Shown here in pieces: positions 24,639 through 47,465 of a stretch of DNA of 64,000 nucleotides. Position 1 is the stretch's first letter. Each line of letters opens with the position of its first letter. The stretch lies in assembly GCA_030704615.1 (NCBI GenBank), contig CM060734.1:50902001-50966000 (forward strand), written 5' to 3'. Below the pieces are notes generated by a model. That model saw only the letters and a program-made list of their open reading frames with translations, was not told the DNA's origin and did no database searches. A program made the translations under genes and the position numbers. This DNA is from Takakia lepidozioides. Taxonomy: Eukaryota > Plantae > Bryophyta.

Positions 24639-25130
24639 TTACCCTCCATCTCGGTACACGGCATAGTGCCCCTGAGCTCGAGCTTGCTTAACCTGCAAGA
24701 GTTGCGCCCGCATGGCGTTGTATTGCAAAGGGGTCAAGTCATTGTTGAGGTACATACCCTGACCTCTCAATTGAGGCCTTTGCCTGAGGACTCTATCCCG
24801 AGCACCCTTGTCCTTGAATCTAATGAAGAGAACTTTGTGCTCTGAAGATCCTGCACGCCAAGCCTTTTCAATGCCACTCGCTCCCCGTGGTAGAGCAAGG
24901 TTTTGCTGAATAAGGCTGGTGGCAGCGTCAAGAGGGTCCCCCTCAACAAGGCTCCCTAGTTTCCCAGCGACCCTGATGTTAAGGGCTTTGAGAGCCCGTT
25001 GCTGTTCCTCTCGCAAGGTAGCCGAGACTGTCTCCTCTAGAGAGTGAGGGTTGTTGTTGGATGTGCTCCCCTTAACTATTTAGCCCAGGAGGAGGCCTCT
25101 GCCTTGTGAGCTTGGAGCTCCCGAGCCATT
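24639..25130 (-). pseudogene. LINE ORF1, C-terminal half
   Basis: NIRVAG..LFIRFKDKGARDRVL..MYLNNDLTPLQ is typical of an RRM/CTD-type LINE ORF1. It joins 45161-45793 across the TSD. Confidence 0.75.
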
Positions 25131-25318
25131 TGTCGTGCGCATACATATCGCTACACAACTACATCGCTGTCCAAAACCACACAACACATGTGCACACCAC
25201 ACACTAGTATACCACTAGTCCACCACTAGTCCAGCCACTAGTCCAACCACTAGGCTACAACTAGTCAGTCACTAGGCTGCCACTATGCTGCCCACTATGG
25301 CAGTCACTAGTCCACACA
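25131..25318 (-). repeat. Split repeat Y, copy 2 (3' terminus)
   Basis: Direct repeat of 25611-25810; abuts the TSD. Confidence 0.92.
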
Positions 25319-25319
25319 A

Positions 25320-25608
25320 TGATAAAGAAGAGGAATACAAGCACGAGCTCACAAATCTGAAGCATAAACTCATGCATATATAACCTCATCACTCAAATAC
25401 AAGTCAAGCCAAGTGCACCCCACGCCATGGGGAATCCACACTATGGCGCGAGAAAGATGAGCCTTCTGCGCTTGCCGTGAAGATAACCACTCCAGGGCCT
25501 AAATCTGCCTTGACCCCTGGATTGACACTTGGGCCAATCCCAAATGTCAATATGTAAAAGCTAGCTATTTCCTAGCTAGTTTCACACTAGTGGTAAAATA
25601 ACTTGACA
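25320..25608 (-). repeat. Split repeat X, copy 2
   Basis: Joined to Y1 by CA-AC-TG on the sense strand. Confidence 0.92.
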
Positions 25609-25610
25609 GT

Positions 25611-25810
25611 TGTCGTGCGCATACATATCGCTACACAACTACATCGCTGTCCAAACCACACAACACATGTGCACACCCACACCACTAGTCCACCACTAGT
25701 ATACCACTAGTCCACCACTAGTCCAGCCACTAGTCCAACCACTAGGCTACAACTAGTCAGTCACTAGGCTGCCACTATGCTGCCCACTATGGCAGTCACT
25801 AGTCCACACA
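25611..25810 (-). repeat. Split repeat Y, copy 1, preceded by PPT-like AGGGGGGCGAT
   Basis: Near-identical to 25131-25318; contains a CCACTAGT array. Confidence 0.92.
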
Positions 25811-26070
25811 ATCGCCCCCCTAGCTGGTGCTTAGGTCCCTCTAAGTCCAGGTAGCCACAAGATGTGATAGTGACCATAGCCTCACTAAGTCCTCCACCAC
25901 TATCCCTACTACACTCAAACTCGATAGATCAAGAGGCCGGGTGCAAGAGTTGCCCCATCGTTAGTTGCCGTCTTGCAACCTGTGAACTTGAGCTTGGGAT
26001 CTCATGTATTGACTCCTATGAGCTTGGCCTCCCATGTCTTGTTAGCTGCCTCCAGTCATGTCCACTTCCA

Positions 26071-27518
26071 CTATCCCAAGCAGTGTGGACACAACCAATC
26101 TCCGTCAGGAACCTTCTCAAGAGGTGGTGTCAAGCATCCTATATGCCAACCCCTTGAGCATCGATCACACACCAGCATGGTGGCTGCCTCTTTGGCAGAC
26201 CCACAGAGCATGCACCTCAAACCTGCAGGTACCACTGCCAAATTTGGGTCAACTCTGCCATCGACATTGGGAAGGTGACATGGCGCACAATTACGCACAT
26301 GGTCCTTCCAAGTCATGCCATCCCGACCCTCTAAGATCAAGACCCCTGAGGGCAACACCTCTCGAACCCTCAGAATAACACGCCCTGCAGTAACATCCAG
26401 AGTCGTAGGAGCAGTCTGCTGCAAATAAACATAGTCACCAGGGCTAAACCTCCGAACCCCAGGATGATATCCTCCACCACGTATAGTGGCATACCTCAAC
26501 GTATCATGGTGATGTGCAATGGCAAAGTTCTCAAAAGCCATGGGCATGACTTTCTTGAACAACTCTGCACGCTGATCACATGCACGTACCCACACGTCCA
26601 GATCGTCAAGGTTAAGGACTTGAGCAGTGTCCCTACGAATGGCTGTAGGCAAATCCGGCTCTCGGCCAAAGAGAAGGAAATATGGTGAGAAAGAGGCAAG
26701 TGATGCTTGTTTGCTGAACCTGTAGCCCATGGCTAACCAATGAACCTGAAGATCCCAATCTCCTAGGTGTCCCTTCTGCAAGCCATACTTGCGCAAACCC
26801 CTCTTCACCGTTTGAACAACTCTCTCTGCTAAGCCATCGGCCTCAGGATGATCCCGAGAAGTGGTGCGGTGGTCTATCAAGGCTTTATCACACAAGGCCT
26901 GAAACTCCCCCAAGAACTCTCTCCCTTGGTCCGTGAATACCTCAGCTGGAGCACCCAATCGGCTAAGCACACGATCCAAGAATGCATACGCAGCCCCCTC
27001 ACTAGCCTTGTCAGGCAATGGAACCAACTCAATCCACTTGGAGAAGTGCTCCACCATTACCAACACATATCTGTGGTGACGCATAGTCAGTGACAACGGT
27101 CCTGCGAAGTCAAGACTCCACCTGTAGCCCAATCCCATGATTGGTAAATGATGCAACTGTGGTGTAGGGGCGTTGAATGAAGCACGCACCCTGTCACACA
27201 CCATGCACCTAGCCACAAACTGTTGCACCTCTGTATGTATGCCACGCCACCAATACTGCCCCTGCAGTAAACTGTGAGTGCGTCGCACTCCAAAATGCCC
27301 CAACTCCTCATGGGCATGCCGCACTAACCGTGCACACTGTGTGGGGTGAGGCACAATCCTCACCCGACCATCCTCCCACACTCGAAGTAGGTGTATCCCC
27401 TCCCACTTGAACCTCTTGGCTTGTTGCAGGATCCGATCCCTCTCCCTAGCAGTCACAGTGGCTGCCGTGTCTCCCGTGTGGAGGTAGTCCAACACAGCCG
27501 AATCCTCATGTATATCTC
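26071..27518 (-). pseudogene. DDE integrase plus C-terminal PHD finger of the outer element (open frame, cut off from pol by the nested insertion)
   Basis: HEELGHFG..CMVC, SLDFAGP, TDQGREF, DGLAER, SPYFLLFG, then the C4HC3 finger CMLC..CDRCSRGWHIGCLTPPL..GDWLCPHC. Confidence 0.92.
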
Positions 27519-28509
27519 TGTTAGAGGACTGTCTGGGATTTAGACACTTATACGGGATCTGTAGGGTACCCTTAATTTTTGCACAGACTGAGACCAACAG
27601 GAGCCTTAGGGGTGACAGCAGCGCATTGTAGAGGGGGGTTACACAGTCCGTCACAGTCGTCACAGCCAACACAGCCCGTCATAGCCGACATAGCCACACA
27701 GCCAGTCACAGCCAACACAGCCCGTCACAGCCGACACAGCCACACAGCCAGTCACAGCCCGACACAGCCAAACAACAGTCGCACAGCCAGTCATAGCCCG
27801 TCACAGTTTCACACAGCCAGTCACAGCTTGACACAGTTGTCACGACCATAGGGAACGGAGAGCAGGACAGGGAACGACTGTAGGGAACAACACCTGCAAA
27901 TGGAACATGTTAGTTCACGGACGACGGTTAGTGAGGGAAACGGTTAGAGCCACGGGTAGGAAGATAAAGGGAGAAGCAAGGACTGAGAAGGGGGACATAG
28001 ATATATTCTTGGAAGCACTTCAGGGGGAATGATTTCTTGGTCATGCATGAGAGGGGATCGGACGGAGAGTAAGAACGGAAGCAAAGATGGAGAGCACGGT
28101 GAAGGAGGAAAGATGATTAGTAGATGCTTGTTATATGCAAAGCTGTAGTGATATTGTAGAGCAGATTAGAGACACAATGGCTTCGGCCTGATACCTGATA
28201 AATCATAATCTGATACTTATACGATACAATCACACTGTGTAGAGAGATCTGAGTGAAGCTGTGGAATGAATGGATGAGTTGATAGAATCCGATAGATTGA
28301 TGAAGCAAACTGATACTTAATTATCAATGGTAAGGTAGCTAACATGAATGCGGAAAGGGAAACAAATAGGAAACACCCCCATGATACACTAGCTGTAGGT
28401 CATGACTGATTGTTCTGCGCGGGCTGAGTACTTAGAGATTTCCAACTCTTCTATCTTGGAGTTTCCGCCTCGGATAGCAAAGGGATGGATGAGTAAAAGC
28501 CGCGCGACA
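27519..28509 (+). repeat. Inner gypsy 5' LTR with CACAGC array
   Basis: TG..CA ends. Matches 35433-36315 except mainly for repeat copy number. Confidence 0.94.
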
Positions 28510-28529
28510 TTTGGCGACCATACTGGGGA

Positions 28530-31460
28530 ACTGAGTCATGAACAACCAGATGTGACAGGCATCTGGTGGGATCATGGTGGTTGGACCATTAAAGAATTTG
28601 AAGTGAATCAAATTCCCTGTGGAAACTTACAGGATGAAGTGGTGACTGGTTGGACAATCACAGCTGATGAGCAAGTGAGGGAAGTGAATGTGGGAACTAA
28701 AGAGGAACCGAGGATGGTGAAAGTAGGAGCTGATTTGGAGCCGGAATTCTTTGAAGAAGCTAAAAGCTTGTTCATCAAATACAGAGATGTATTTGCTTGG
28801 AGCTATGAGGATCTAAAAGGGATACCACCTGAAGTCTGTCAGCATAAGATTGAACTGGAACTAGGGTCAGTACCAATCAAGCAGGCGAGGTACAGAATGA
28901 ATCCCAACTACGCACAGAAGGTTGGAGAAGAGATTAAGAAGTTGGCTGAGGCTAAGTTTATATACCCAATAGAGTATACAACTTGGTTGTCACCCATTGT
29001 ATAGTTCCCAGAAGAATGGTAAACTAAGAGTTTGTGTGAACTACAAGAAGCTGAATGCTTGTACGAAGAAAGATCCTTTCCCTTTGCCATTCACAGAAGC
29101 AGTATTAGACACTGTGGCAGGCCATGAGATGTACTCATTCATGGATGGCTTTAGTGGTTATAATCAAGTGCAAGTGCAGAAGAAGACCAAGGAAAAACAG
29201 CTTTCATCACAGACTGGGGTGCTTATGCATACAAAGTCATGCCCTTTGGACTTTGTAATGCACCAGCGACCTTTCAGAGAGTGATAAGTGAATCTTTTCA
29301 TGAGTATCTGGATGATTTCATGCAGGTATTCTTGGATGATTTCAGTGTGTACAGTTCTAAGAATGAGCACTTACATAAATTGGAGTTATGTCTGGCCAGA
29401 TGCAGGATGAGAGGTCTGGGCCTGAATCCAGAGAAGTGTACTTTCTGTGTGAACTCAGGGGTGCTTCTGGGACACATTGTGTGTAAGAAGGGACTTCTTG
29501 TGGATCCCAGGAAGACAGAGTCCATTAAAGCCTCTCCACCACCAGTGAATGTTAAGAATCTAAGGAGATTCCTTGGGCAAACCAGTTATTACAGAAGATT
29601 TGTCAAAAGGTATGCACAAATAGCAGCACCATTGAGCAAGCTTCTGAAGAAAGATGCAGTGTTTGCCTGGACAGCTGAATGTCAACAGGCGTTTGAGGAA
29701 CTTACACTGTCAGTAACAACTACACCTGTGCTGATTAACCCTCACTGGCATGTGTATTTCATGTTCACTGCGATGCATCAGGGAGCGTTGGGAGCGGTGT
29801 TAGCCCAGAATGTTACAGGAAATATAGATTCACCTGTGTACTATGCTAGCAGGTTGATGAACAGTGCTGAAAGGAACTATAGCACAACGGAAAGAGAAGC
29901 ATTGGCAATGATCTATGCAGTGAAGAAATTCAGGCATTACCTGTTGGGCAAGAAGTTTATGTTCTATGTGGATCACCAGGCTCTGATATACCTGGTAAAC
30001 AAACCTCTGATAAGCGGAAGAATAGCAAGATGGTTGTAATAATCTTGCACGAGTTTGAGTTCGAGGTTGTTTACAAGCCTGGGAGACTGCATCTTGTGGC
30101 GGATCACTTGTCACGGTTATCAACAGGAGAACAGCCACAGGAATAGATGATCAATTACCAGATGCGAGTCTATTTGCAGTGGAGGTGCAGGGAAGTGCAG
30201 ATGACTGGTTAGATTGGCAGTGGCCAATCAGATACTACCTTGCTCATGGTCAGTGCCCACCTAGTTATGGTAAGGAGCAGAGGAAGAGAATCGCTATCAA
30301 AGCTTTACCTTATACTATGGTAGGAAGCAGAATGTATAAGCTAGGACTGATGGAGTACTAAAACGATGCTTGTACCACCATGAAGTAAATAAAGTTTTGG
30401 AGGAAGTTCATAAAGGAGTGGCTGGAGGTCATTTTGGAGAAGAGACTACCAGTAGGAAGATACTACTCGCAGGTTACTGGTGGCCTACTTTGTTCAAAGA
30501 TGTACACGAGTATTGTCAGTTGTGATGAATGTCAGAGGCTAGGACCTTTGCAGAGATCTGGAAGGATGGCCTTGCATCCTAATGCCTACGGAACCATTTC
30601 AGAAATGGGGACTAGACTTTGTTGGACCAATTAACCCACCAGCCAAGAATACACGGAACAGGTACATAATTACAGCCACTGATTATACTACGAAGTGGGT
30701 GGAAGCTAAAGCTTTGAGGGACAACACAGCCAAGTCCACAGCAAGGTTCCTGTATGAGAACATACTTACACGATTTGGCTGTCCCTTAGAATTTATCAGT
30801 GATCAGGGAAGTCACTTCATGAATGAGACCATTGAGTTGTTGACTAAAGAGTTCATGATTGTGCATAGAAAGAGTACAACATATTACCCACAGGGTAATG
30901 GGCAGGCAGAGGCTACCAACAAAATACTATGTACTATCTTGGCTAAGATAGTCAATGCAAACAGAACGGATTGGGATACAAAGCTGCTGACAGCTTTGTG
31001 GTCATACAGGACTTCATATAAAGTCACCACTAAGTATACACCATTCCAATTAGTTTATGGTATGGAAGCCTTACTTCCAGTGGAATTCCTGTTACCTACC
31101 ATGAGAACGGAGTGGGAAAGAGAATGGAATTGCAAGATTCCATTAAGGTCAGGAAACATGAATTATACCATGTGGAAGAAGTACGTGCTGATGCAGCTGA
31201 TAATATGACCAGAATTCAGATGAAGAGAAAGGAACAGTTTGATGAAGGCAAGTTAAAGACTTTTAAGACGGGGGATTTGGTTCTATGGTTGCAGAAGAAA
31301 GGAAAGATTAAAGCTTCTAAGCTTAAATCACCATGGAAAGGACCTTATGTCATACAAAAGATGTATGATAACAACACCGCCATGTTACAAACCATTAACA
31401 AAGAAATGCTGGGAAGAGTCAATGCCAATAAGTTAAAGGGATACAGTGGTATCCATGACA
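28530..31460 (+). pseudogene. Inner gypsy pol (RT-RNase H-integrase), frameshifted
   Basis: YRDVFAW, WLSPIV, MDGFSGYNQ, MPFGLCNAPATFQR, FLDDF, NYSTTEREALA, WGLDFVGP, SDQGSHF, QGNGQAE, WKGPY. Confidence 0.93.
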
Positions 31461-31574
31461 AACCCTTGCAGCATGATTTGCATGTTGAAACGCAAGAGCA
31501 GTCACGGGCTGCACCAGTGTTACCAACGGAGTATGGAGCACTTGTCGCTAGGCCAAGCATATATGACCAGGGTA

Positions 31575-31750
31575 GCCTATCACAGCCATCACAGCGTGAC
31601 ACAGCCTATCACAGCCAGCACGGCACAACACAGCCTATCACAACCTACCACCGCGTGTCACAGCCTATCACAGCTTACCACAGTGCATCACAGCAGCCTA
31701 TCACAGCGTACCACAGTATGACACAGCCTGTCACAGCTCAACACAGCCTA
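31575..31750 (+). repeat. Degenerate CACAGC tandem array inside the inner element
   Basis: Repeated cacagcctat/cacagc units. Confidence 0.85.
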
Positions 31751-32447
31751 CTAGGGTTACACGATCCATAGAATCAGTGACAGGTGGACGCACAATAACT
31801 TCAGGAAATGGCTGACGGAAGAAAAGACGGAAACAGTTTAAAAATAGACACGTGGAAGTTAGGGCGCGACACAAGCAGGAACAAGAACAGGTGTCATCAA
31901 GAAAGAGGACAAGAATGGCCGTCAAATACCTAATCAGCGCGTCAAATTGGATGAAGGCGGGCCCATTAATGAATACGGAAAAAGGGGAACGGAACAAACG
32001 GCAAGTACAGAAAAGCGAAATTCTTGTCACATGTGTGATCCTAGTGGACTATCCAGCAGGGAAAGTCCACTAAAGAAAATGAAATCTAAAATCCAGTCAC
32101 AGCGGTTACAGCCAATAGAAAGCCAGAGAAAGGATCAAGAAATTGGAGGGAAATTAAGCGCAAGAGGCGGCGTCGTTCTGAGTAACGGGCGTCTCGACGG
32201 GACAACCATCAATGCTATAGCTTGGAAACTATGGAGGAACTAACAGACTATACGCTCGCAATATTACTTACGCAGTGGCATAGACACGAAAGAACAGAGC
32301 GGAGCTTTTCTCTTGATCGATGCTTGCAAGCCCCACAGGCTTACAAGAAATTACCCATAGCTTTTTGTGGCAACCATACGTTTATGCTTTGTGCACTACA
32401 GGCATTTCTGCAGTTGTTACAGCCAAAACATTTCTGTGGGTCTAAAA

Positions 32448-35277
32448 TGAAGAGAGTGAGAGGAATGGAGGAAATCAGGGTGAAGAGCACCACAATTCTG
32501 CAGAACAAACGATTGCTACCCCACAGGCGATACAGATACTGAAGGAGCTGAGATTGCAAGGATTGCAAAGCATAGATTGGACATTGCACCATAGACAGTA
32601 CATGTTACAATTCTTGCAGAACTTTGAGCCAAGGACAGGAACAACAACGGTGAAGGGAGTTGAATTAGTAATTACTCCCTATACCTCCAGCAATTGTTTC
32701 GATTGCCAGCAGGTCAGGTGCATGTGGAGGAGCACAGGGCAAGACTGCAAATAGGGGACTTATTCCAAGAAGGGAGTTTCTTTAAAACTCAGGGTTATGC
32801 TTGTACCAAGGCCGTGTACCCAGGGCTAAAGGAGGTAGGCCAGGTATTGAACGTTCTGATTGCCATGAAAAAGAACCAACAGTATTTGAGCAGATCCTTC
32901 ACGGAGGAAATACTCAAAGCCCTGAAAGGACAAGAGGTAGAATGGGCGGACATAATGTACAACGCACTGGTAGAGGAGATGAAAAGATTACAAGGTACTA
33001 CCGCAAAGTCTCCTATCATAGTGTCTGGCCCAATCATTGCTCAAATAATTCTTGATTCTGGCATACTTGATGCGCAAGAAAGAAAGAAGATGGGAGTGTT
33101 TGAGCCAGAAACCACTGCAATGGAAGAGCAAGGCTCTTCACACAGTGAGGGTGGACTAGCAGGGCAACCCGAGACTAAGAGGCAGAGACGGGGAAAGACT
33201 GTAGTGGCGGATCCACTGGCTTCACGGATTCCGCATGATAATGTTTCCCAAGCTCATGTGCAGGAAGGGGCACAGCAGCACAGAGAACTGCTATTACTGG
33301 AAGCAGGACCTTCAGAGAGGGAGAGGAAGTTACTTCAGTATCACAGCCATCACAGCCAGCTGATCGGCTTGTCACAAGGTTACAAGTTGTCCATGCAGCT
33401 CAACCAGAAATAATTGATTTGGAAAAAGAAGGGTTAGATATTCCAACTACAGAACAGATAGTGGCAGAAATTGAAAAGGGGACCTTCTCTATGAATATTC
33501 TGGTCTGGTCAAGGAGACAGAGATTCCAGAGGTGCAACATTGCCCAAGGGAAATCCTGAGGTGCATATAATACACACACCTGTGTCGGAGGTACCACAGG
33601 TAGAATGTCAAGACACTGCAGCACCGGTGATGGATGAAGTGGTTCAGGAAGAAAATCCGGTGGGACAATGGCCTGAGTGGTTCGTGAGACATCACACTGT
33701 TGAGGATCAGGAGAACAGCAACAACCTCACCATGATGACCCTCAACAGGCAATGCTGATGAGTTCCATAGGCACTTAATTTGTTGGGGACTTATGTCAAA
33801 TCCCATGTTCCAACTACCCAATTGACAGCCTTGAGAGAGGAACTCAGGAAGGAGTTTGAGGCTCGACTAGCCACTGAGTGTGCAAACAAGGTCGATGAAA
33901 GGTCACTCTCAAGATGCAGCAGGACTTGGAAAATACAGAAGCGGCTTTGCAATTGGCCAAGGAACAATTGATTGAGGCAGGCCTCGCGCAAGACCAGTTG
34001 CACGAAGCACATAAGCAACAGCTATACCAAATGCAGGTGCAGCATGAAAGCAAGTTGCAAGAAGTGAATGCACTACATACGGAGTTGCAGACAGTGCATG
34101 ACAGGATGGCGATACAATGTGCTACATTCACAACTATGCTTGACCAATCTACAAAAGAAATAAACAGTCAAGCGGAAAAATGTAAAGGCAGAAGCAGAGA
34201 ATGTTGAGCAAATGAACTCATTGTCGATATGAAGAATACAATCTGTCGCAATGAGGATACTTTCAAGCAATACAGGCAGATTGAAGCTGATCAAGAGAAG
34301 TACATCCTGGAGTTGCAACAAACGCTCATGGCCAATAGAAATGAAATCTCGGTCACTAACAAGGCTTGGAAGGAAGCTAATAATCTACTTGCTGCCTATG
34401 CGAATTGGTTGAACCTCATGCGAAGCGCATGGAGGCTTTACAACAGCAGTTAGAAGTGTACAAACTCAGAGAGGAGCACACTCAGAGGAACCACAAGCAA
34501 CTTGGTGGATAACAGCCTTATGCAGGTCTGGTTAGCACAAGGGCCAGTGGAGGGCAAAGCACCACGAAAGCTCACCCAAAGCGAGATGAATGAGCTCAGA
34601 CTGCAAGTGTGCAGAACATTGCCACAACTACTATAGACAATGTCTATAGTAGGATAGCAGAGTTACAGAGGATGTAGACGGACTGCAGACTCAAGTGGAG
34701 GACCTCACTTCAAAATATCGACAAAAGAGTCTATATCCCTCAGGAACAGCTAATGGCTTCTTATTTACAAGCCAGAACTTTGGCTTTTCAGTCTTCACAG
34801 GAGGTGCAGGAGGAGATGCCAATGATACAAGAGCCAGTACCACCAAAACCACAACAAGTCACTGTACCAGTAGCTGAACCTGTTGTTACTACAACCACAC
34901 CACAGCCACCACAGCCTGAGGTATGGGGCAATGCTGCTTTTAACCCACCTAAAACTCCAGCTGCAAGGGAGTACAGTAGGGCTATGATTATGCCCTTCAA
35001 CCAAATTCCCATCATGTTGGATTTGGCTTGGAAAGAATTTAGTCCTCCGCAGTCATTCGCACATTACTACCAAATCATGCGTATTTGGCTGCCAGTGGCA
35101 ACTAGGACTAAAGTTCTTCCGAACAATCGACATATTGAGGATCATCACTTTGCACAATACTGGCATGAGGCAAGTACAATGTTGAAGGAATTAATTGCCT
35201 TCCAAGTTGTACATGGATTCATTTATACCAAGACCAAGGAGGTAGCAAGTATTAGAGGGCCTCACTTATCCTGGTAG
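32448..35277 (+). pseudogene. Extra sense ORF(s) between integrase and the 3' LTR: plant-retrotransposon accessory-type domain, coiled coil and a 174-aa ORF
   Basis: The pattern FLQNF..TVKGVELVIT..FRLPAG..VEWADIMYNAL resembles accessory ORFs of plant non-chromoviruses. Coiled-coil fragments at 33800-34450; ORF 34753-35277. Confidence 0.55.
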
Positions 35278-35432
35278 TGTTCAAACATCTCCGTCAACCA
35301 GTGACAGACCTCGGGCTCGTATACACAGTCCGCCACAAAACTCTCAACGTCAGAAAGGTGCTCACTCACAAAGGTTTGCTAATCGCAATCAGTAAACCGT
35401 GAGGACACGGCTTTTGAGAGGGGAAGGGGTAA

Positions 35433-36315
35433 TGTTAGAGGACTGTCTGGGACTTAGACACTTATACGGGATCTGTAGGGTACCCTTAATTTTTGCACAG
35501 ACTGAGACCAACAGGAGCCTTAGGGGTGACAGCAGCGCACTGTAGAGTGTTACACAGTCCGTCACAGCCAACACAGCACAGTCACAGCCACACACAGCCA
35601 CAACACAGCAGTCACAGCCCGTCACAGTTCACACAGCCAGTCACAGCTTTCACGACCATAGGGAACGGAGAGCAGGACAAGGAACGACTGTAGGGAACAA
35701 CACCTGCAAATGGAACATGTTAGTTCACGGACGACGGTTAGTGAGGGAAACGGTTAGAGCCACGGGTAGGAAGATAAAGGGAGAAGCAAGGACTGAGAAG
35801 GGGGGGATATATTCTTGGAAGCACTTCAGGGGGAAGGATTTCTTGGTCATGCATGAGAGGGGATCGGACGGAGAGTAAGAACGGAAGCAAAGATGGAGAG
35901 CACGGTGAAGGAGGAAAGATGATTAGTAGATGCTTGTTATATGCAAAGCTGTAGTGATATTGTAGAGCAGATTAGAGACACAATGGCTTCGGCCTGATAC
36001 CTGATAAATCATAATCTGATACTTATACGATACAATCACACTGTGTAGAGAGATCTGAGTGAAGCTGTGGAATGAATGGATGAGTTGATAGAATCCGATA
36101 GATTGATGAAGCAAACTGATACTTAATTATCAATGGTAAGGTAGCTAACACGAATGCGGAAAGGGAAACAAATAGGAAACACCCCCATGATACACTAGCT
36201 GTAGGTCATGACTGATTGTTCTGCGCGGGCTGAGTACTTAGAGATTTCCAACTCTTCTATCTTGGAGTTTCCGCCTCGGATAGCGAAGGGAAGGGTGAGT
36301 AAAAGCCGCGCGATA
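35433..36315 (+). repeat. Inner gypsy 3' LTR
   Basis: TG..TA (terminal CA mutated), followed by the TSD. Confidence 0.94.
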
Positions 36316-36439
36316 ATCTCTGGCACCACCTGGCTCATCACTAGCCTCAGGGTCCTCAGACACTCCGTCTAAAGTCATCCCTATTGTAGGTCAACCTGAC
36401 CTCCCGATGCCAAGATACACAAAAATGCAGATGCGTGCC

Positions 36440-37900
36440 ATCCCGGCACCATCTCCTCGTCCGTCTCACCATGCCACGAGCTCCAGTGTCATCCTGCTGG
36501 CTCATGCATGGATTGCGACTCAATCCATCCGCATCCCGATTGACCAAACCTGGTCGATGCACAACCTGAAAGTCATACTCCTGGAGTATGAGTGCCCACC
36601 GTGCAAGCTTCCCGTAAGCCTGACTCCATCAACCACTTGAGTGGCTGGTGATCCGTGACAAGGGTGAAAAGATTGCCGTATAGATAGCACCTGAAGTGTG
36701 CCACGGCCTACACTGCAGCTAAGCACTCTCCCTCATATGACTACAGCCTCTGCAGCGTTGTTCGAGCGGCTAGCGTAAGCCACTACGAACTCTCTTCCCT
36801 CATCATCCACCTGTGTGAGCACCGCTCCAAGCCCCAGCATGCTCCAATCCGTATGCAGCTGAAAGGGACGCCCCCTGATAGGTCGTCTCAAGATAGGCGC
36901 CGAGGTCAACCTCGCCTTGAGCTCTTGAAAAGCTTGTTCCTGCTCATCTTCCCACTGCCACTCCTGGTCCACCTTGGTCAGCTTGGTTAGAGCCTTTGCA
37001 ATGGTACTAAATCCCTTGACAAACCGTCTATAATAGTTTGCCAACCCCATGAAAGCTCGAACTCGGCTCACATCCGTGGGGCGTGGAATTTGTGCAATGG
37101 CCTCTACCTTAGTCTGCTGTACCCCCAATCCTCCAGGATATATCATGTGACCCAGATACTCAATCTGGTTGTGGAAAAACTTGCACTTCCCCGGATGCAA
37201 CGTGCTCTCAAGCGCTCCAATACCACCTGAAGGTGTCTCTCATGCTCCTCCATCGTAACACTAAAGATGATGATGTCATCTATGTAGCACCGAGCAAAGT
37301 CCACCCCTGCTAGAATCCTATCCATGACTCTGAAACTCTGCAGGAGCATTCTTAAGCCCAAATGGTAAGAACCGCCACTGATATAGGCAATCCTTGCCGT
37401 GCTCATTGATCCCCCAGAATGCCGTCTTCTGCTTGTCCGCCTCCTTGATTGGCAACTGGTGATATCCGGATCGTAAATCCAAAGTGCTAAAGGCCTTAGC
37501 ATGCCCGATGGCATCAAAGATCTCCTCTGGTGTTGGCATGGCATACTTATCGGACTTGGTCTGACGATTTACAGGCCGGTAATCACCGCACATACGTCTC
37601 TCCGTCCAATTGCCATAGACATCCTTCTTGGCTGGCATCACTGTGGCTGAAGCATACTCTCCACCAGAGAGCTCCACCAAAACCTGCCTCCCAGAGATCT
37701 TGAGTCCTCATCTGAATCAAAGACCTCTCCATCACTGTATTCTATAGGGTCTCCGAAAGATTGGCGTGTCAGTGGCCAACTCAATACGGATCTCTTGACC
37801 CTTCAGTGCTCCCAAGTCCTTCAAACTGAAGGCAAAGCAATTCCTGTAAGCCCTCAGGAACCGCCGTATACGTCGTCTCTCTCCTCCGGTGACAATGGGT
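36440..37900 (-). pseudogene. RT and RNase H of the outer element
   Basis: [75 protein letters not shown]. Confidence 0.93.
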
Positions 37901-38249
37901 CCAATGTCAGGCTCCCAATTGTCCTCCGTAACTGCAACCTTAAGTCCAGTGGGCTTAGAGGTAGAGGACGCGTCCAGTGGTTGCTATGTTGCAACCTCTT
38001 GAGCAGTACTCCCTACCTGCTCAGTCAATGACAAGGCCTCATCCTGCCCCATCATCTCATCCTTGAGGACCTCCTCAACCCGAGAAGAATCCCCAACCTC
38101 ATCCATCACAGCCGCCTTGGCTGCCAACTCCCTCTGAACCTCGAGCACCTCCCACGTGTGCCATGGATGCATGCACCCCGTGGTCCTCACATGCTCGCCC
38201 CCACTCACTGCCTGTACCGTCTCGGTAGGCAGAGAGACCATGAGGGAAG

Positions 38250-39245
38250 TGTACTCCGCACTCTGCGTTGCTCAGCCAGAGCCAAGCTGATAATCCAGGT
38301 CAAGCAATTGAGATCCATTGCTTGCCCCAACACTTGACGACGTGATGCCTCAGAAAGAGACGACACCGCCGTGGTACCAGTGGTAAAACCCATTGCCCGC
38401 TCACGCTCGTCAGCATTAGGCTCCACTAACTGCTGCAACTGAGCATCCCACAGGAGGCCAGGTCCACTATCCCGGAAAGCATGCGATCCTGGGAAGCTGA
38501 GCAGTGTAGGTAATGCTGCTCGTGGTTGACCCACCTTGTTGACCACTGCCAAAGGCGAACGGTCATCGTGTCTCACACGCTGAGACTGCCTCCCTGTGTC
38601 CAGAATGTTATCCACTGTGAGATGTGCTGGCCGCTGCACCCCATCAAATGCACGCTTGAGCAGTGCGGGTGGCATCAAGTTAGTCCACCATAGCCGTGGA
38701 CGATGAGCCCGTGACCCCACTGTAGCTGCATCTAGCAACACTGCTGACCCAAGCCACGACCGGACTTGATGCACACTGGCCATCACCTGGCCCGAGAATC
38801 GCCCATCAGTGGCACATTCTCCAAGATGTATGCTGGAGATACAGCTTGATGAAGCTGCAAGTGGCGCAAAACCGCACCATCTCCCAAAACAGACCCGACC
38901 TCGAGTCTCGCAATCCATTGCCATGCCGGCTGATGAATGCCCTTGGCAGGGCCAACCTGCCCTACCAGATCAATGGAGCCAACCCGCTCCAAATCCTGCG
39001 CCCCCAGCAACGAAATGTCTGCTGGCAAGGCCTGCTGATATCCACGAATTGCAGACACCGACAACAACTCAGGGTACCGCTGCACCAACTGAGCAACATG
39101 GCGAAGTGAAACGCGTCGTGCAGTCTCATCCCTCTCCACATACAGGTAACGCCGAACTCGTACACCTGCCTGTAACACAGCAGCCAATCCGGTGCTGATC
39201 CCGCCAAACAAGTCCAGAAGACAAATGCCTTCATCCGGATACTGC
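38250..39245 (-). pseudogene. C5 cytosine DNA methyltransferase domain (DNMT3/DRM-like) within pol, frameshifted
   Basis: Motif I LDLFGGISTG, II YVERD, III ADI, IV GWPCQG (Cys codon 38946-38948), GLRDSRSGLFWEMVR, VI ILENV, VIII SRAHRPRLWWTN, IX ERERAMGF, X RRQVLGQAM. Confidence 0.9.
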
Positions 39246-39634
39246 CACACAATAGGTGTGGTGTCCAATGGAGACAATTGAGGTGGTCCTGGTGCAATCC
39301 CCACACTCTCCTCCTCTCCTGACGGTACAAAAGCCTCCACCCAGGCTTGTTGCACCCGTCGATCAGCATCCCGCTGCAAATCCTTGCTCGTGCCCACAAT
39401 GGAGTCTGAGCAACCATGGTAGGCAACTCCGCCATACCATACATGTCATCCTGCTCTCCCGGAGGTGGTACATCCTCTGAATGAGCATTGCCCTCAAGCA
39501 ACTCTCTAGGCCAACTCACTGCCGCTGTGAATGCTGCTAGTGTCGGCATCTTGCCTCGCTGGGCAACCGCAACTCCTCCTATGAACGTCACAGGGAGCTG
39601 CACACGCCGGCCCTCCCCTGACTGCCATGCAGGC

Positions 39635-40075
39635 CTATAGGAAGCTGACTCCTCCAAAAATCCAGGGTGAAGCCCATGGGGTACAACACTGCCCCACCAA
39701 CCAGGACATCGTATGAGACGCGTCTGTCACAATGGCCTTGGCTCGCATCACTGAGCCATCTGTAGGGTGATCCGGCCGTAGTCTGATAGCCAACTCACGC
39801 CGTGTCATGCCCCGAGCCTGCTCCGATCCTCCCAGAGACGTCTGTATCTGGAAAGGACAAGGCTCCATATCCGCCCCGTGAGGCCCAAAGCCTGCAATAG
39901 CAGCTCTGCCCAGCATCAATGGCTGAGCTCCCGAGTCCAACAAGACCCGCAGTGGCCGGTACCTCTTGCCTGCCGGTCCACTCAAACAGAAAATGCCATC
40001 CTGGTTGTCTAACATGACAACTCCAGGTGTCACCATGGCGCGCTCAATGGCTGGCCTAGCTGGCAGCTCCATCAA
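39635..40075 (-). pseudogene. Aspartic protease of the outer element
   Basis: RVLLDSGAQPLML motif; a downstream YDVLVG-like motif in another frame. Confidence 0.8.
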
Positions 40076-40706
40076 CCTGGCAGCTGCAGCTTGCCATGGC
40101 GCGCCGTGGCAGTCTTGACCCTCAAATCCGAGGATCCCTCCGGCACTACACCTCCCACTATCTCCGCAGAAGATGAAGTAACCTCCCCACTCTCACAGAG
40201 TGTAGCTGCCAGCCTGAACACCTCAGCTGGTCTTACCCCCGGCGTCGCAATCATGGTAGCCGAGAACAATGGAGCCTGGCACACAGATGTGGCCGCTCCT
40301 AGCAGCACACTAGCTGCCGTAGCCTTGGCAACACTAGGTAGTGGTGCTACCCGTGTAGCTCTCCCCAATGGCATAGTAACCTCCGCCTCGGTAACAGTCG
40401 GGCGAGAACTAGGTGCCATGGATGGCGTCGACACTGTCTCCGCCAATGTGAATGACTGAGGAAGCCTAGCCTGACGGCTTGCCTCCCCACGCTGTGGATC
40501 CAACTCCACCTCTGCACCTCGTGGCTCAGGAACTCGTGCTGCTCCTCGAGTCACGGCTGCAGCAGACTCCACCTGCACTAGTGGTAGTGCTGCTCCACAC
40601 ATGAATCCCATGCCTCCCATATCTCCTCCCTCAGGAGCAGGAGGTGGACCATCCGGCCTTAGAGCCGGTACCACCTGAGCTGTAGCCATGGCAGCGAGCC
40701 TCTGCT

Positions 40707-42145
40707 CTAGCTGCTGAAGCCGGTTGGCCATGCCTTGGTCACACCCTGACCTCCGCGTCCTTGGCCATGTTGAGCTTGCCCTTGGCCTGCACCTCGTGGC
40801 TGGCCACCTCGTCCTCTCTGGGCTGCTCCACCTCGCCCCCGGCCACCATTGTTCCCTTGGAACTGGCCTGGGCGCAACTCAGGATGCAAACCATAACACT
40901 GGGCCTCTCCATGCCCGTGCTTGCCACAATGCCCACACTGCAACTGTGCAGGCTGTGCATGTGCCGGCCCTTTGCCTCCCTCTGGGCAATCCTTCTTGAC
41001 ATGGGGTCCTCCACATGTCCAGCACACACCCGCCCGTTGTTGGCCAGCAAATGAAGGGAGAGACCCCTGCATCTGAGGTCCTCTCTGCCCTTCCCTGAGC
41101 TTCACCTGAGCCCCCTTGTTGCCTTGAGCACGTTGAGGTAGTGGTTGGCTAGGAGCACCACTACCCCGTGGTGTCTCCTTAGCAAATCCCACCATGACCA
41201 CTCGTTCCTCCACCATGTTGAGCTCTATCCGCTCTGCCAGCAAAAACACATTTGCTAAGGTGGGTTGGGCCGCTTGTAGGAGAGTTGCATCCCGCACCCT
41301 TCTCCTCAGCTCCTTGTCCATATCCCATACCAGAATTGGACTGCCTGAGCTTCCGTAACCCTTGGGTTACATTTATCAAGCGCCTCATGCGAGTGAAAGC
41401 CTCCCTCAAGCTCTCGGTCGGCTTCCGTTGGAACTCTTGCAAGCTCCGCAACTTCTCTGTCCTCACCCCTTGGTAGTTCCCTCTCAACTCTTCGAAGAAC
41501 TCCACAACAGGGTTGAAGGCAGGCACGGGTGCTAGTGCTGGTGCGGTAGTGGCTTGGGTGGACGTCGTAGCTACTGTACCACCAGTCCCACTAGCTGCTA
41601 CTTGCTGAAGCTGCCGGTGTGCAGCGGCAGGTGTAGCCACTGCCCTCGTGGCTCTAGTGCCCCTAGTGATGGAGACATAGTCGGGTGACCAGTACATCCT
41701 CCACTCCTCGATCTCAACCTCATGCCCCCGCCTGAACTCATGGTAATCATCCATAGGCGGCCCCTCAAGGTGCTGAAACAGCCCCTTCCATGCCATGAAG
41801 GCGTAAATAGTTGTGGATTGCGCATTTGCTGCAAATCACACCAACTATCAAACTCTTGGATAAAATCATCCAACTCGATGGTGCCCACCGCCCCAGAGTA
41901 CCTTCGTGGCCCTTGGTAGCTCCATACATCTCCTCCATTGTGTCCCACAACAATGGCAAAGAAACAACTTGCACCGCCGGTATGAGTCCTCCTGATTCAC
42001 AATCCGAATCAGAACCTTCCGTAGAAGACACAGGAGGTGAAGGTGGCCTAAACCGCACACCTCGTCTCGTGTACCCACTAGTATCGCTAGTGCTCGAACC
42101 GGCACTGTCCCCAGCAACTAGTGGCACCTCCGTGTTGACACTCAA
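40707..42145 (-). pseudogene. Gag of the outer element with two Zn knuckles
   Basis: YSG..DDFIQEFD, QRKPTESLREAFTRM, CWTCGGPHVKKDC and CGHCGKHGHGEAQC across frameshifted ORFs. Confidence 0.82.
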
Positions 42146-42829
42146 CCGGTCATGAACATGTCCCTAACCCCCTCTCCACAAGGTAACCGGGTAGAGAACC
42201 TGTTGCGGCTTATGGTTTGGAATACTAAGTTCCTAACATAGCCTACACCTGTACCTGCATCCACCGCAAGCACTCCTATGGTTGGCTGGTCATCACCTCC
42301 AACCTCACCACAGGAGAAACAATGATGGTCTGGCTGGTCATCACCCCAGTCGACAGCATGCTCTAGGACTGGCCGGTGATCAAATCCGGACCAATCACCT
42401 ATAAAAACAAGCGCCCACACAAAACTAGCATGGCGCACAGTCAAGCATGCAGGTATGGAGGGGATCCAAACACAAGAAATCAGAACGACAACTCCCCCAC
42501 ACCAAAAACAACTCCACGGTGTTGCTCCTGCAAGGACACCCCAGCCCAAACCCGGACTGACTCTTGCCTCCACCTACGGAAAGGTCTTGGCCTAATGAGA
42601 GGGTGAAACTACGAGGAAGAGAAGCTAAAGCAATGCCTAACCCCAGCATGCCCTCATCCCAACACTCTTCCTCTCCTCTCTTCCCTCACTTGCATGACCA
42701 TGGGATATCATGAAGATACTCCTCAAACCGCCCTCCACGAGCTTCAAAATTCGGCCTTCCAGACCACATGCCAGTCCTTAGGCAGTCCACCAGTGCCTCC
42801 ACGAGTCAGCACAGGCCGTCCACAGGTCA

Positions 42830-43290
42830 ACACGGGCCACCACAGACCAGCACAGGCCCACACAGCTCACTGGTCATTCACAGGGCACAGCCTGTTCACA
42901 GCCGTCACACACAGCCGTCACAGCCGTCACAGCCCCACAGAGGCAGCCTGTCACAGCCCAGAGGCCTCACAGCACAGTCACAGCCCCCAAAGGCCTCAGG
43001 CATGTTCACAGCCCCAAACACCACAGCCCTCACAGCCTCACAGAGGCCCACAGCCTGTCACAGCCCCTCACAGCCCGTCACAGGCCAGGCACAGCCTGTC
43101 ACAGCCCCACAGCCCGTCACAGCCCCACAGGCCATGCCTGTCTCACAAGCCCCTCACAGCACAACAGCCCCAAAGGCCTTTCACAGCCCCCAGGCACAAG
43201 CACACACAGCCCCAAAGGCTCAGGCACGGCCTGTCACAGCCTCACAGCCCTCTGTCACAGCCCGTCACAATTTTGCCCGTCACAGCCCCA
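42830..43290 (+). repeat. Degenerate CACAGC tandem array in the leader of the outer element
   Basis: Dozens of (gt)cacagc(c) units. Confidence 0.88.
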
Positions 43291-43739
43291 GGCCACCGGC
43301 ATCCAGTGTTCCATGGCCGCTGGCAGTTTAGCCATTTCTCCAGGGGTTTAGCCACGCCAAGCTAGGGTTTGTGTCTCTTGGACTCTAGGCTTCTTTCCAC
43401 CGAGCTATGGCGGCTGTGAGGAAATCAGCAAGGTATTCTTGCTCTTTCGGCTCCCACACACCACCATAGTAGCCCTAAGCCATGAGGTGGTTGCCACAAA
43501 CCAAGCCTTCTTTCTCACTTAGCCTCCCCAAACACGCCACTAAACTCAATGGCAAACAACCAAGCCCTGCTGGTTCCCAGCCCTTGTGAGCACTCATTCA
43601 AGCACTCTCCTTGGCCATAGCATCTGTCTTAGAGCCTATTCCAGCCCCCTACACCTGCTGCTTCAAGAGTTGCGCTCCCTTCAAGCTTGAAGTTGAAACC
43701 CCAACTCACATAGGCCCTACAAGTGCTTTTCTTTCACTC

Positions 43740-44230
43740 CAAGTGGAAACCAGCCCTAGACCTTCCGTTCTAGCTCTCTAAAGCTTGAAAACAACAGAGC
43801 CTCAATGGGCTGAAGGCATGCTCCACATGCCCCACTCTCACCATAAGAGAATCAGCTCCTTTGCTTCATTTCTTGCACCTACAAACCTGAAAATACAAGC
43901 TTCAGCAGGCTGAAAGCATGCTCCACATGCCCTACAGGGAAACCAGCCCCTTCCTTCCTTCCTTCCTTGCACTCCCACACCTGAAAGTGCAAGCCTTCAC
44001 CAGGCTGATAGCACGCTCCACACATGCATTGCCCTCACATAAGGGAAGTCAGCCCTTCCCTCTTCCTTGCTTGCCCTCCAAGCTTGAAGATGGAAGCTTC
44101 AATGAGCTGAATACATGCTCCACACATGCAACCTCTTCACACAGAGATATCAGCCCCCTATCTTGGCTCCTTGGCTCCTTGATGCTCTCTAAGACAAGAC
44201 TAAGCACTCCACAGCCTTTGCCAAGCTCCT
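43740..44230 (+). repeat. Degenerate ~95-100-bp tandem repeat
   Basis: The core (g)ctccaca recurs at ~43820, 43920, 44015, 44117 and 44206, each followed by a cagccc-type motif. Confidence 0.65.
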
Positions 44231-44842
44231 GAACCCTAAGGCTTACATTTCCAGCCACAAGACACTTCTCTTGTGGTGCAAGAGCTCTTCTTCCAAGCTC
44301 TGAAACCCTAGGTGCACATTCCATGGCCTTGCCGCACCTCTTAGCTCCTATTCCAGCCTTGCTCTTGCCATGACAAGAGTCCTCTCAATGCTGAAGCTCG
44401 AGATTGAAACCCAATCTCACCATACTCCACAAAGTGCACTGATTTGCCCCAAGCCAAATCAGCCCTTTCGCTTGGTCTTGCAATCCTTCACACAATGAAA
44501 GCTCGCATTCCCAAGTCCAGTTCTCAGCTTTGCCACCAAAGCCACTATAACCTGCTCTTGACTGGTCCTCTTCCCAATCGTGCTTGCTCATGCATGTACA
44601 CAATCTGAAACCATCAAGGTGCTCTGGAATTACCTGCAGCATGGTGCTTTCATCTCTGAAGCTGAAGATCGAATACCAAGGTCTACCACCTCGTAACCCA
44701 CATCGCCTCCGCTTCTAACAACCAAGAGCTCCACGGTGCTCCTTGCATAACAACTTGGTTTCTCTCATTCTCAAGCAAAAACCACAAGTGCTACAACTAA
44801 CTCGTATCTGGCACTCACAGATACGAGCTCATCTTTCTCGAG

Positions 44843-45160
44843 TGATAAAGAAGAGGAATACAAGCACGAGCTCACAAATCTGAAGCATAAACTCATGCAT
44901 ATATAACCTCATCACTCAGATACAAGTCAAGCCAAGTGCACCCCACGCCATGGGGAATCACCACTACGGCGCCATAGCTAGGCGCGGTGAGGCTCAACTC
45001 GAGAAAGATGAGCCTTCTGCGCTTGCCGTGAAAGATAACCACTCCAGGGCCTAAATCTGCCTTGACCCCTGGATTGACACTTGGGCCAATCCCAAATGTC
45101 AATATGTAAAAGCTAGCTATTTCCTAGCTAGTTTCACACTAGTGGTAAAATAACTTGACA
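44843..45160 (-). repeat. Split repeat X, copy 1 (5' terminus)
   Basis: Near-identical to 25320-25608, which lacks ~28 bp. TG..CA ends. Confidence 0.92.
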
Positions 45161-45793
45161 CATTGTAGACGTCGCAGTTCCGTGTGTTTCTAGCTCTTTG
45201 CTAAGGGATTCCACCTGCAGGTGGATGCTTGCCATGAGGGGATCTGGGGGGCTCTTCTCTACGAAGGTCTTCACTTTGTTTTCAAGTTTCGAAAGACGCA
45301 TATGTGTGGATTTGTCATTGAGATGTTTCGACAGACCTTGAAGTTTGTTATTGCACTCCTGAAGAGAGGTCTGCAAAGCGCTGTCCTGAATTTGCATATT
45401 GTCCAACGACTTCTCCAAGTTTGTGTCCCTGTCTGCCATGCGCTTCTCCCAAGCTTTGTCCAAGGAAGCCATGCGCTCCTCCCAAGCTTTGTTAAGGGAA
45501 GCCATCCGCGTCTCCCAATCTTTGTCTAGGGAAGCCAACCGCTCCTCCGAGTCCTTGTCTCGGGCAGCGAGCGCTAGCTGCAGAGTCTCCTCTGAGATGC
45601 ATTTCGTTTGCAAGATGGTGATTTGGTCCCCAAGCGTTTGAACATCAGCACTCCTTGTGGAGTACTGACGCAAAGGAGAGGCCTGCCGAGAGACAGGGGC
45701 AGGAAGAAGAAGCAGAGGGGAAGTAGGTCGGGGTGAGGGAGACGGGGAGTCTACCTCTTCGCCAAACGTCCTTTGGCGTTTGGAGGACGTCAT
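45161..45793 (-). pseudogene. LINE ORF1, N-terminal coiled-coil half
   Basis: ORF 45134-45793 has 11-aa repeats. Removing the insertion gives ..GTATSTM-ARELQAHKAEASSWA. Confidence 0.75.
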
Positions 45794-46039
45794 GGTGTGG
45801 TGGAGGTGGCGCTAGTAGCGCCAACACGTGTGAGCGCAGCGCCGACGCACGAGCGTCGACGTGCTGCCGTGCGCACGAGAGAGAGAGGTGAAGAAGAGAG
45901 GGTGGCAGAGAAGAAGAGAGAGCGGGGAGAGAGAGGTGGTGCAGTGGAACAGAGAAACATAACAGAAAAGAGGGGCCCCCAACCCCCAACAAAGACGAGA
46001 GAAGAAAACAAACAAGAGAGAGAGAGGGGCAAGAGAGCA

Positions 46040-47460
46040 AAGAACTCAAGGAGCGACTCACACTTTAAGCAACAACGAAATATAGCCATAATGAAACCAT
46101 GCAACCATATGAGCAACGAGGAACAACCATGAACTGTCCTTCTAATACAGAAACAATGCAGAGAAGTGATCCCAAACTATGGAACTAAGGCAACAACAAC
46201 AGAGCAACAACACAAACACAAATGAACAAATACCACGGAAGACTAATCTTGGGAGAGGGTAAGCCACCAGGAAAAGTCAGCACTCGCACCGAAGACTGAC
46301 GAAAGACACTACTTACCCCAACAAAGAACTGCACCAGAGAACACTCAGAAGGCTATATGCGAGAGATTGCGTGCAACAGAGGAACTCTACCACAGAAGAG
46401 TGATGGGCTGATGGACATATATAGCTAGGCCACCAAGAAATTGCTCCCCCCGAAGCCCCGTCGAAGCCGGCCTACATGCCAGAGACGCCAGCCACTGATG
46501 CCCGAATATCCTCTTTCAGTGAAGAATAGCCATGTTACGGAGCATCTCTATCCCTTCTTTGTCCGTGGGCTTTTATTACATGTTTTTAAAGTATCTCCTC
46601 TTCCGAGCGTCCAACTGATACGCCTGGATCTTGTAGTTACGGAGAGTTGAACCCCGGACGCCCTCAATATGCCCAAGCTGCACGGTTCGCTCAAAGAGAC
46701 TGGTCCCATCCAAGTTAATGCTGCAAGTATATATATGCTATCGACCTAGGTAGCTTTGGCTTACTAGTTCCCCATTATAGTCTTTCCTCCTTGCAGACCA
46801 ACTTTTCAAATCTCGACATGTTTCCGTTCACATGTTTTTGTGCTGGTAAGACAAGCAAAGTGAGGCTACTTTGATTTGAGGTATTGAATACTTATCTGGT
46901 TGAATTACTAATTTGCATTTCTTAGGTAGTAGTGGTCGTAATGTAATTGCAATTTGCTGCAGGGGTGTGTTCGTGACCTTCCAAACCTTTGCAACTGAGT
47001 CTCTCTCACAAACATCCCTCTCACTAATATTCACTTGTGTGGCTGCCAGCTATGGGGCTCCACATAGCTATGGGGCTCCACACATAGCTCCACATTATTA
47101 ATTTAGTAGCACAAATGATCCAGTACTTCACATGCTCTTTGATCTTTATCCCCCACATTAATTTGTTCCTATTAACCTACTCCCTTGCATGTCATGTGCA
47201 TTGTGCCCTTTGCTGCCCTCAGACTCCAAGTAGGGATTTGCTTTATTATCTCTGTTCAACAGTCCACAGAAGAACAAAGCCCATGAGCATGGAAGTGGTG
47301 AAAATGAATCTTGAAAATTCCAGCTTTGAAAATTCAATCCAGGATTTTAACTCAGATTCAATTAAATAGTAGAGATTCTTTGAAGATCTGAGCCTATACT
47401 ACACAACTTGGAAGTCATCCGAACTCAAATTAAACTTCACATATATAAGGTATCTCAAAA
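46040..47460 (-). repeat. Inverted copy of the PAH upstream block
   Basis: Reverse complement of ~15935-16970; also matches 50180-51440 directly. Confidence 0.85.
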
Positions 47461-47465
47461 CTGCT

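Follow-up and report, generated by a model that had tools for sequence, protein, structure and literature searches.

A split-repeat Gypsy retrotransposon of a probable bryophyte with a DNMT3-type cytosine methyltransferase domain upstream of a predicted leaky stop codon

The window, i.e., the whole stretch of 64,000 nucleotides analysed here, carries on its minus strand a retrotransposon that self-comparison delimits as a 20-kb unit (45160 to 25131) with TG/CA ends and a 4-bp duplication, inserted into the ORF1 region of a LINE whose reverse transcriptase (RT) lies at ~21900-24500. Its repeats follow the layout A1-coding-B1-NN-A2-B2. In the order of the element, its features are:

45161..45164, minus: left 4-bp target-site duplication (4-mer identical at both ends)
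44843..45160, minus: repeat A1 at the 5' end, starts with TG and ends with TCA (self-comparison)
44997..45013, minus: predicted self-primer and likely RNA 5' end, inside A1 (perfectly complementary over 17 nt to the site following A1)
44827..44843, minus: primer-binding site immediately after A1 (complement to the A1 self-primer)
40700..41938, minus: gag with zinc knuckles, frame-broken (tblastn to the Marchantia protein P0005; Retrotrans_gag weak, below cut-off)
39650..40100, minus: aspartic protease region, LDSGA at 39940 (motif; Asp_protease_2 below cut-off in relative P0036)
38250..39245, minus: DNMT3-type C5 cytosine methyltransferase (DNMT) domain, unpermuted, final domain of ORF1 (five frame pieces; motif map, profile, relatives)
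37978..37986, minus: in-frame stop with CARYYA hexamer (TAG CAA CCA), predicted leaky, ORF1/ORF2 boundary (locus comparison; motif from PMC5382211)
36480..37977, minus: frame-broken RT and RNase H, the latter with one premature stop (Pfam RVT_1, RT_RNaseH)
27519..36315, plus: unrelated Gypsy LTR element that is nested in this copy and does not belong to the system (LTRs ~27519-28510 and 35433-36315; 5-bp duplication)
26071..27518, minus: integrase (H2C2, rve) with C-terminal PHD finger, unbroken (Pfam)
25815..25826, minus: polypurine tract preceding B1 (conserved in L050, L060, L051 and others)
25611..25811, minus: repeat B1, ends with CACGACA (self-comparison)
25609..25610, minus: 2-bp spacer of the internal GACA-NN-TGTC junction, predicted integrase site (spacer variable, flanks kept)
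25320..25608, minus: repeat A2 (28-bp deletion relative to A1 beside the self-primer)
25131..25319, minus: repeat B2 at the right end, ends with CA (self-comparison)
25127..25130, minus: right 4-bp target-site duplication (matches the left 4-mer)

The domain order protease-RT-RNase H-integrase and a DDE integrase place the element among the Gypsy retrotransposons, as the first-pass annotation had proposed, though Pfam gave no protease match in the window piece itself. We also considered the DIRS order and rejected it on the rve/H2C2 DDE integrase, where such elements have a tyrosine recombinase, and on the 4-bp target duplication. The PHD finger, split repeats and self-priming site that had been named as further parts of the system are all present: Pfam matched the PHD finger with an E-value of 1.6e-10, the repeats emerged from self-comparison and the self-primer complement spans 17 nt, compared with a maximum of 10 in shuffled sequence. 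Equivalents of 10-11 nt occur in three related loci (L006, L043 and L060), and none was located in L050. The finger is most like those of CHD4, KDM5B (PHD1), PHF12, ATXR5 and PHF21A, several of which belong to PHD types that recognise unmethylated H3K4, and no chromodomain was found by Pfam in the integrase ORF.

Repeats A1 and A2 agree at 281 of 285 sites (4 substitutions) and B1 and B2 differ at one position at most, so that the insertion is young. This copy is dead, since the nested 8.8-kb LTR element sits between RNase H and integrase and interrupts the coding region; contigs of other copies pass position 36316 straight to the integrase side without it. The nested element (27519-36315) has a tRNA-type primer site, a pol that begins without gag, additional 3' coding sequence of ~4 kb (32664-35277) and a strong loss of CpG (0.24). 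A CTGTGA-type short tandem repeat is common to the 5' leader of the DNMT element (42800-43300) and the nested LTRs (27640-27830 and 35560-35650).

Six-frame translation and a motif map located every methyltransferase motif that the first reading had placed on the minus strand between protease and RT, in the order given there: LDLFGGISTG (39217), YVERD (39142), GWPCQG (38957), RSGLFWE (38901), ENV (38821), RAHRPRLWWTN (38711), ERAMGF (38402) and RRQVLGQAM (38342), preceded by LDSGA of the protease (39940) and followed by PIFRRPY (37764) and YIDD (37286) of RT. Motifs I, II, IV (PC), VI (ENV), VIII, IX and X are thereby in linear order. Small frameshifts are indeed all that breaks the domain, with four interruptions near 38961, 38925, 38871 and 38785 that leave five in-frame pieces. 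The search with PF00145 suggested earlier turned out differently for the window and its relatives: neither of the two motif-bearing window ORFs matched in Pfam, as expected of a split domain, whereas nine of 12 scanned relatives scored above cut-off. A profile of 23 relatives run against the six-frame window recovered two DNMT pieces with E-values of 2e-103 and 3e-39 and nothing else notable, the next and unrelated match having an E-value of 2.7.

At three of the four DNMT breaks, single-base indels set this copy apart from others. Several contigs align to the window without a substitution yet with 2-10 gaps, and the repeats diverge by ~1%. Each of the 12 indels listed between this and other copies (window 36400-45100) touches a same-base run, so that many of the frame breaks in this young copy may stem from errors of long-read assembly, although the integrase ORF has no break.

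Profile and fold of its relatives put the domain nearer to DNMT3 than to DRM, DNMT2 and bacterial enzymes, as determined with P0001, P0009 and a sequence alignment labelled A1 (not repeat A1) in place of the broken window copy. Against the PDB, the relatives' profile ranked DNMT3A/B/C on top (4e-16 to 1e-11, with DNMT3A at 4e-16) and HhaI (8e-6), DRM (2e-5 to 5e-4) and DNMT2 far behind. The predicted structure of P0009 (pLDDT 76, pTM 0.82) had DNMT3A as its top Foldseek match (E 1.9e-16), and the Atlas result agrees with the DNMT3 assignment. A DRM identity was rejected because DRM enzymes are circularly permuted, with motifs VI-X before I-V, and DRM chains align to the relatives through their C-terminal part only. 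Linear motif order, profile and fold ranks hence all bear out the earlier call of an unpermuted DNMT3-type enzyme that is not a DRM. With DRM2 and DNMT3A the element's domain shares the C5-methyltransferase fold and DNMT3-type motifs VIII to X; it differs in having no PWWP, ADD or UBA domain, in its identity of ~22% to DNMT3A and, from DRM, in being unpermuted.

A protein search with the C-terminal DNMT piece returned 92 relatives, the best from Calypogeia fissa (77%), Marchantia polymorpha (74%, many copies), Riccia sorocarpa and Sphagnum; a second search gave 82 matches and added Closterium. Most of these matches are nameless, and none among the 92 and 82 is named as Klebsormidium. In metagenomes, 336 of 600 pattern-matched stretches were relatives, of which 80 loci were kept, while viral contigs gave 21 pattern matches and 0 relatives. 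Between 544 and 89,339 contigs from four public runs (three studies at most) map to the element and cover 30 of 30 bins, which indicates a large, abundant family without measuring how many copies there are; the window itself may come from the best run. In a DNMT tree the window falls within a 30-row group with Marchantia, Calypogeia and Sphagnum sequences (support 99), and in an RT tree it joins the same lineage and L051 (support 99). Both are quick trees without bootstrap: the former comprises element-type sequences only, omits 16 of 96 proteins for short coverage and includes the window as a row with ~58 out-of-frame codons, and the latter has a single long outgroup.

The DNMT domain is under purifying selection about as strong as that on RT, in a test made between lineages and not among the copies of this genome. 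Compared with four moss-like loci, the window has a pN of 0.16-0.20 and a pS of 0.73-0.75 (259/317 codons, those in frame), and dN/dS is ~0.12 in the distant pairs L051/L052 and L078/L080, whose RT-RNase H regions give 0.06 and 0.38. Of 77 loci, 73 retain the catalytic cysteine, and 77 of 80 retain the glutamate of ENV; together with the motif I glycine, the cysteine and ENV are conserved between lineages whose synonymous sites are saturated. Arginine codons decay in line with CpG deamination.

These results bear on an alternative history in which a piece of a host DNMT3 or DRM gene was captured a single time and has since been a neutral passenger. Such a history would suit the state of this copy, which is frame-broken and split by the nested element, and the dN/dS of ~0.6 that decayed moss-like near-copies show among themselves. 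Yet relatives from liverworts, mosses and algae have the domain in the same place, and it has no introns, is unpermuted and is under strong purifying selection between lineages. Family spread and purifying selection lead us to reject a one-off capture, which we regard as next to impossible; in both respects the first-pass annotation, which had made its case depend on other copies having the domain and keeping it under selection, agrees with the comparison of lineages and with the relatives in Marchantia, Calypogeia, Riccia, Sphagnum, Closterium and many metagenome contigs.

Not all relatives have the domain in the same place. Blastp architectures of 158 relative proteins show it after RT or directly before integrase in 67 (RT-DNMT-IN in 45, DNMT-IN in 14 and RT-DNMT in 8), and 32 of the 158 have protease and DNMT without RT or integrase behind, some of them cut by contig ends. 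The second architecture, RT-RH-DNMT-IN-PHD (P0054, P0060, P0066, P0076 and others), forms one RT clade of 49 rows (local support 99), two EukProt members of which resemble algal proteins. Either the DNMT domain was relocated inside the element or it was captured two times. P0076 has at its C-terminus a second methyltransferase-like stretch (DPWAGTG ... SPWF) that we take, from the motifs, to be of the adenine or N4-cytosine type, and P0091 combines PHD, PCIF1_WW and DNMT domains.

The first-pass annotation had described the methyltransferase as lying inside pol. Its position between protease and RT stands, but a conserved in-frame stop at 37986 parts gag-protease-DNMT from RT-RNase H-integrase-PHD. 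Directly before RT and in the RT frame, a stop followed by CAR-YY occurs at 43 of 56 loci that contain both DNMT and the start of RT, though these 56 are mostly near-copies of one moss-like family and amount to about three independent lineages; of the rest, five have a C-to-T decayed form and eight lack the signal. The background frequency of stop-CAR-YY is 0.74% of all stop triplets. The full CARYYA hexamer is found at four of the 43 loci (behind UAG in the window, L051 and L052, behind UAA in L027) and CAR-YY alone at 39, since the moss-like family has CAA CCC with a deviating sixth base, followed by an in-frame ATG two codons past the stop. In L051, whose two ORFs are unbroken, nothing but TAG CAG TTA lies between a 1369-codon gag-protease-DNMT ORF and a 1047-codon RT-RNase H-integrase-PHD ORF. 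Some relatives have no stop here, namely L078, in which DNMT runs straight into RT, and P0056, P0099, P0100 and P0108. In L070 and L077 a stop comes immediately after DNMT without the CAR-YY signal; L070, L077, L078, L079 and L080 represent further subfamilies from the same contig sets. One decayed copy (L018, ~6960) has a tyrosine in place of the stop, a single case. Downstream of the stop, three loci gave no sign of a conserved RNA structure.

This arrangement makes it likely that the stop is read through and that the methyltransferase would be made at the level of Gag. Stop-codon readthrough occurs in SIRE1. Tobamoviruses use UAG with CARYYA as their type I readthrough signal (TMV-type), and in benyviruses and pomoviruses, too, an in-frame polymerase follows UAG-CARYYA (PMC5382211). 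In contrast to the viral signal, the element's stop separates protease-DNMT from a Gypsy RT, and the moss-like family differs at base six. Alternatively, the stop might truly end ORF1 and ORF2 be expressed by splicing or re-initiation, with DNMT still at the Gag level. For re-initiation speaks the ATG past the hexamer in the moss-like family, and for splicing that Marchantia and Sphagnum gene models (P0002, P0004, P0015 and P0058) span the region with what look like predicted introns around the stop. However, the codon at the ATG position is CTG in the window and GAG in L051, in which the first methionine of ORF2 lies inside RT, and CAR-YY is conserved although the flanking amino acids vary, which argues against both routes. 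We therefore consider expression of ORF2 by splicing or re-initiation improbable and continue with readthrough.

The repeats hold a second unusual feature. The internal junction GACA-NN-TGTC has a variable spacer (AC, GC, TC or GT) between unchanged flanks, and the inserted form begins at A and ends at B, which are the two sides of this junction. Going by the priming sites, the repeat unit is B-NN-A, so that ordinary reverse transcription would give B-NN-A at each end. All 18 visible 5' ends begin at A. The right ends come in two forms, B-NN-A-B (window, L041, L046, L050/L060 and L066) and a single B (~ten insertions), the A-to-B joint is identical in the window, L041, L050 and L060, and the 4-bp duplication is perfect at six of eight loci with both ends. 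These A-start, B-end forms fit 2-LTR and 1-LTR circles that are cut at the junction, and the internal CA-NN-TG junction thus suggests integration from circular cDNA. A symmetric 2-LTR circle would also be expected to give A-B-A-coding-B insertions, which are seen at 0 of 18 ends; as all visible 5' ends are at A, the cut would not be symmetric. The single-B ends could instead reflect B1-B2 recombination after insertion. Circle junctions are also part of IS3-family transposition. The closest parallel is foamy virus, whose integrase cleaves palindromic 2-LTR circle junctions according to the accessible portion of PMC1180852: in both cases a DDE integrase would open a palindromic CA/TG circle junction, here predicted from sequence anatomy alone, but the element's junction lies within the repeat unit and not at joined ends.

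DNMT-bearing retrotransposons have been described from algae and dinoflagellates, including KnitGypsy-Dnmt3 of Klebsormidium nitens (de Mendoza et al. 2018, PMC5890265). As far as its accessible text goes, KnitGypsy-Dnmt3 is the closest known system, with the same Gypsy domain set, an unpermuted, intronless DNMT3-type domain and purifying selection; its repeats are given as DIRS-like A-coding-B-A-B (legend of Fig. 4c), a layout identical to that found here, and our element may be related to that of Klebsormidium, as had been suggested. The two differ in that DNMT of KnitGypsy-Dnmt3 shares one ORF with RT and RNase H, whereas a conserved stop lies between them here (a readthrough product would join them), and that readthrough, self-priming, the PHD finger, a 4-bp duplication and a CA-NN-TG junction do not figure in what is accessible of that account (PMC5890265). 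Retrotransposon-borne C5 methyltransferases are likewise known from SymbioDIRS-Dnmt3, SymbioLINE-Dnmt and EpiLTRs (PMC5890265; bioRxiv 10.64898/2026.05.21.726589). Going by the accessible parts of these sources, SymbioDIRS and SymbioLINE use tyrosine recombinase or LINE machinery and EpiLTRs have a DNMT4-related domain with DAM and a chromodomain, and none of them is from land plants. Predicted self-priming from a 5'-repeat complement is also a feature of Tf1/Sushi and plant Tcn1 chromoviruses, which are present in mosses; compared with Tcn1 as described in the available text (PMC6317226), our element has a PHD finger in place of the chromodomain at the integrase end, plus split repeats and DNMT. 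An opinion paper of 2019 stated that land plants such as tracheophytes lack transposons that encode methylases (PMC6338049). Under the names of the Klebsormidium element, the literature at hand yielded, besides the 2018 paper, only a 2026 preprint, the accessible part of which mentions "streptophytes (Gypsy-DNMT3)". In the literature at hand, mostly titles and abstracts without subscription papers, we found no land-plant DNMT-Gypsy element and no readthrough or circle-junction model for such elements. The kind of element is hence already known from Klebsormidium; what appears to be new is its occurrence in land plants, in named liverworts and mosses, and two testable mechanistic features predicted from sequence.

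From these parts a life cycle can be proposed. Most ribosomes would halt at UAG, yielding DNMT 1:1 with Gag and RT and integrase as a minor readthrough product, and the protease would release DNMT within the particle, which would carry many enzyme copies because DNMT lies ahead of the leaky stop. Self-primed reverse transcription would give a cDNA with B-NN-A at both ends that becomes a circle, and integrase would cut the internal CA-NN-TG junction of this circle for insertion. DNMT would methylate the cDNA, which might then be taken for host DNA or arrive already silenced, and the PHD finger would direct insertion to chromatin with unmethylated H3K4. Animal DNMT3 couples an ADD domain to its catalytic domain, a parallel to the PHD finger and DNMT3 domain of the element. 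The position of DNMT in ORF1 favours self-methylation of cDNA by a particle-borne enzyme, a function that, in its accessible text, the study of de Mendoza et al. 2018 proposed for such elements (PMC5890265). Overall, we give about even chances to the reading of this locus as a dead copy of an abundant Ty3/Gypsy family in which a DNMT3-type domain ends ORF1, RT and integrase follow a leaky stop and the cDNA is self-methylated. CpG depletion provided no mark of self-methylation, with values of 0.46-0.64 in the DNMT element and 0.24-0.62 in neighbours without DNMT. The moss-like copies decay at 0.22 in CG, 0.25 in CHG and 0.08 in CHH contexts (T-to-C 0.03), equally in RT, and CHG decay as high as that of CG is consistent with host silencing.

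The enzyme could also be aimed at host chromatin and not at cDNA, i.e., at the insertion site, rival elements or DNA viruses, or serve as a brake on the element's own spread. Expression at the Gag level would give a surplus of enzyme for such tasks, the 67 of 158 proteins with DNMT after RT or directly before integrase place it near the integration machinery, and ideas of a host benefit have been put forward (PMC6338049 and the accessible text of PMC5890265). In our element, however, the stop and inferred protease sites part DNMT from integrase and PHD finger, and how it would be carried to such a target is not obvious, so that we rate a host-chromatin target as unlikely. We think slightly less still of a domain kept for binding, be it as a particle component that binds nucleic acid or SAM, as an RNA methyltransferase or as a decoy for host silencing proteins. 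This idea draws on production together with Gag, as for structural proteins, on the absence of extra CpG loss in the element and on the Klebsormidium domain, which showed no activity in yeast, a result that its authors call inconclusive in the available text (PMC5890265). Conversely, the catalytic cysteine, ENV and the motif I glycine are kept across lineages saturated at synonymous sites, and the same text reports that related DIRS-borne DNMT3 domains methylate CG in yeast, with SymbioDIRS-Dnmt3 performing de novo CG methylation there and cDNA self-methylation being proposed as its role (PMC5890265). A broader form of the self-methylation reading would see an old Gypsy clade across the green lineage, in mosses and liverworts, that combines a de novo methyltransferase at Gag level, pre-methylated cDNA, routine integration of circles and a PHD finger of the H3K4me0 type; this we hold to be possible, if doubtful. 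If true, a land-plant transposon would be writing its epigenetic state itself, and circle-based integration would have a natural example among LTR elements.

Marchantia is a genetic model with methylation mutants, in which the question why a transposon carries its own silencer is directly testable. The stop codon predicts the life-cycle step at which the enzyme acts, since DNMT would be plentiful in the particle, and the internal junction predicts an unusual integration route. ORFs of the family that are annotated as host genes (e.g., Mp4g09160 and Mp8g17980) can inflate counts of plant methyltransferases.

A land-plant host, as had been supposed from the sequence, is supported by an intron-bearing acyl-ACP thioesterase gene at 57023-60029 (minus strand) that is most like those of mosses, its best named matches being Sphagnum jensenii (47%, first exon) and Ceratodon; the host is thus probably a bryophyte. 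Elsewhere in the surroundings, 340-2415 and 21900-25100 hold LINE remnants, and one Copia-type element lies at 2867-6912 (minus) and another, oppositely oriented, at 8643-13577 (plus). A small gene, presumably with a SIN3/PAH-like stretch, recurs at 15900-20700 and 46000-54400 in several copies, both direct and inverted, that are 70-98% alike.
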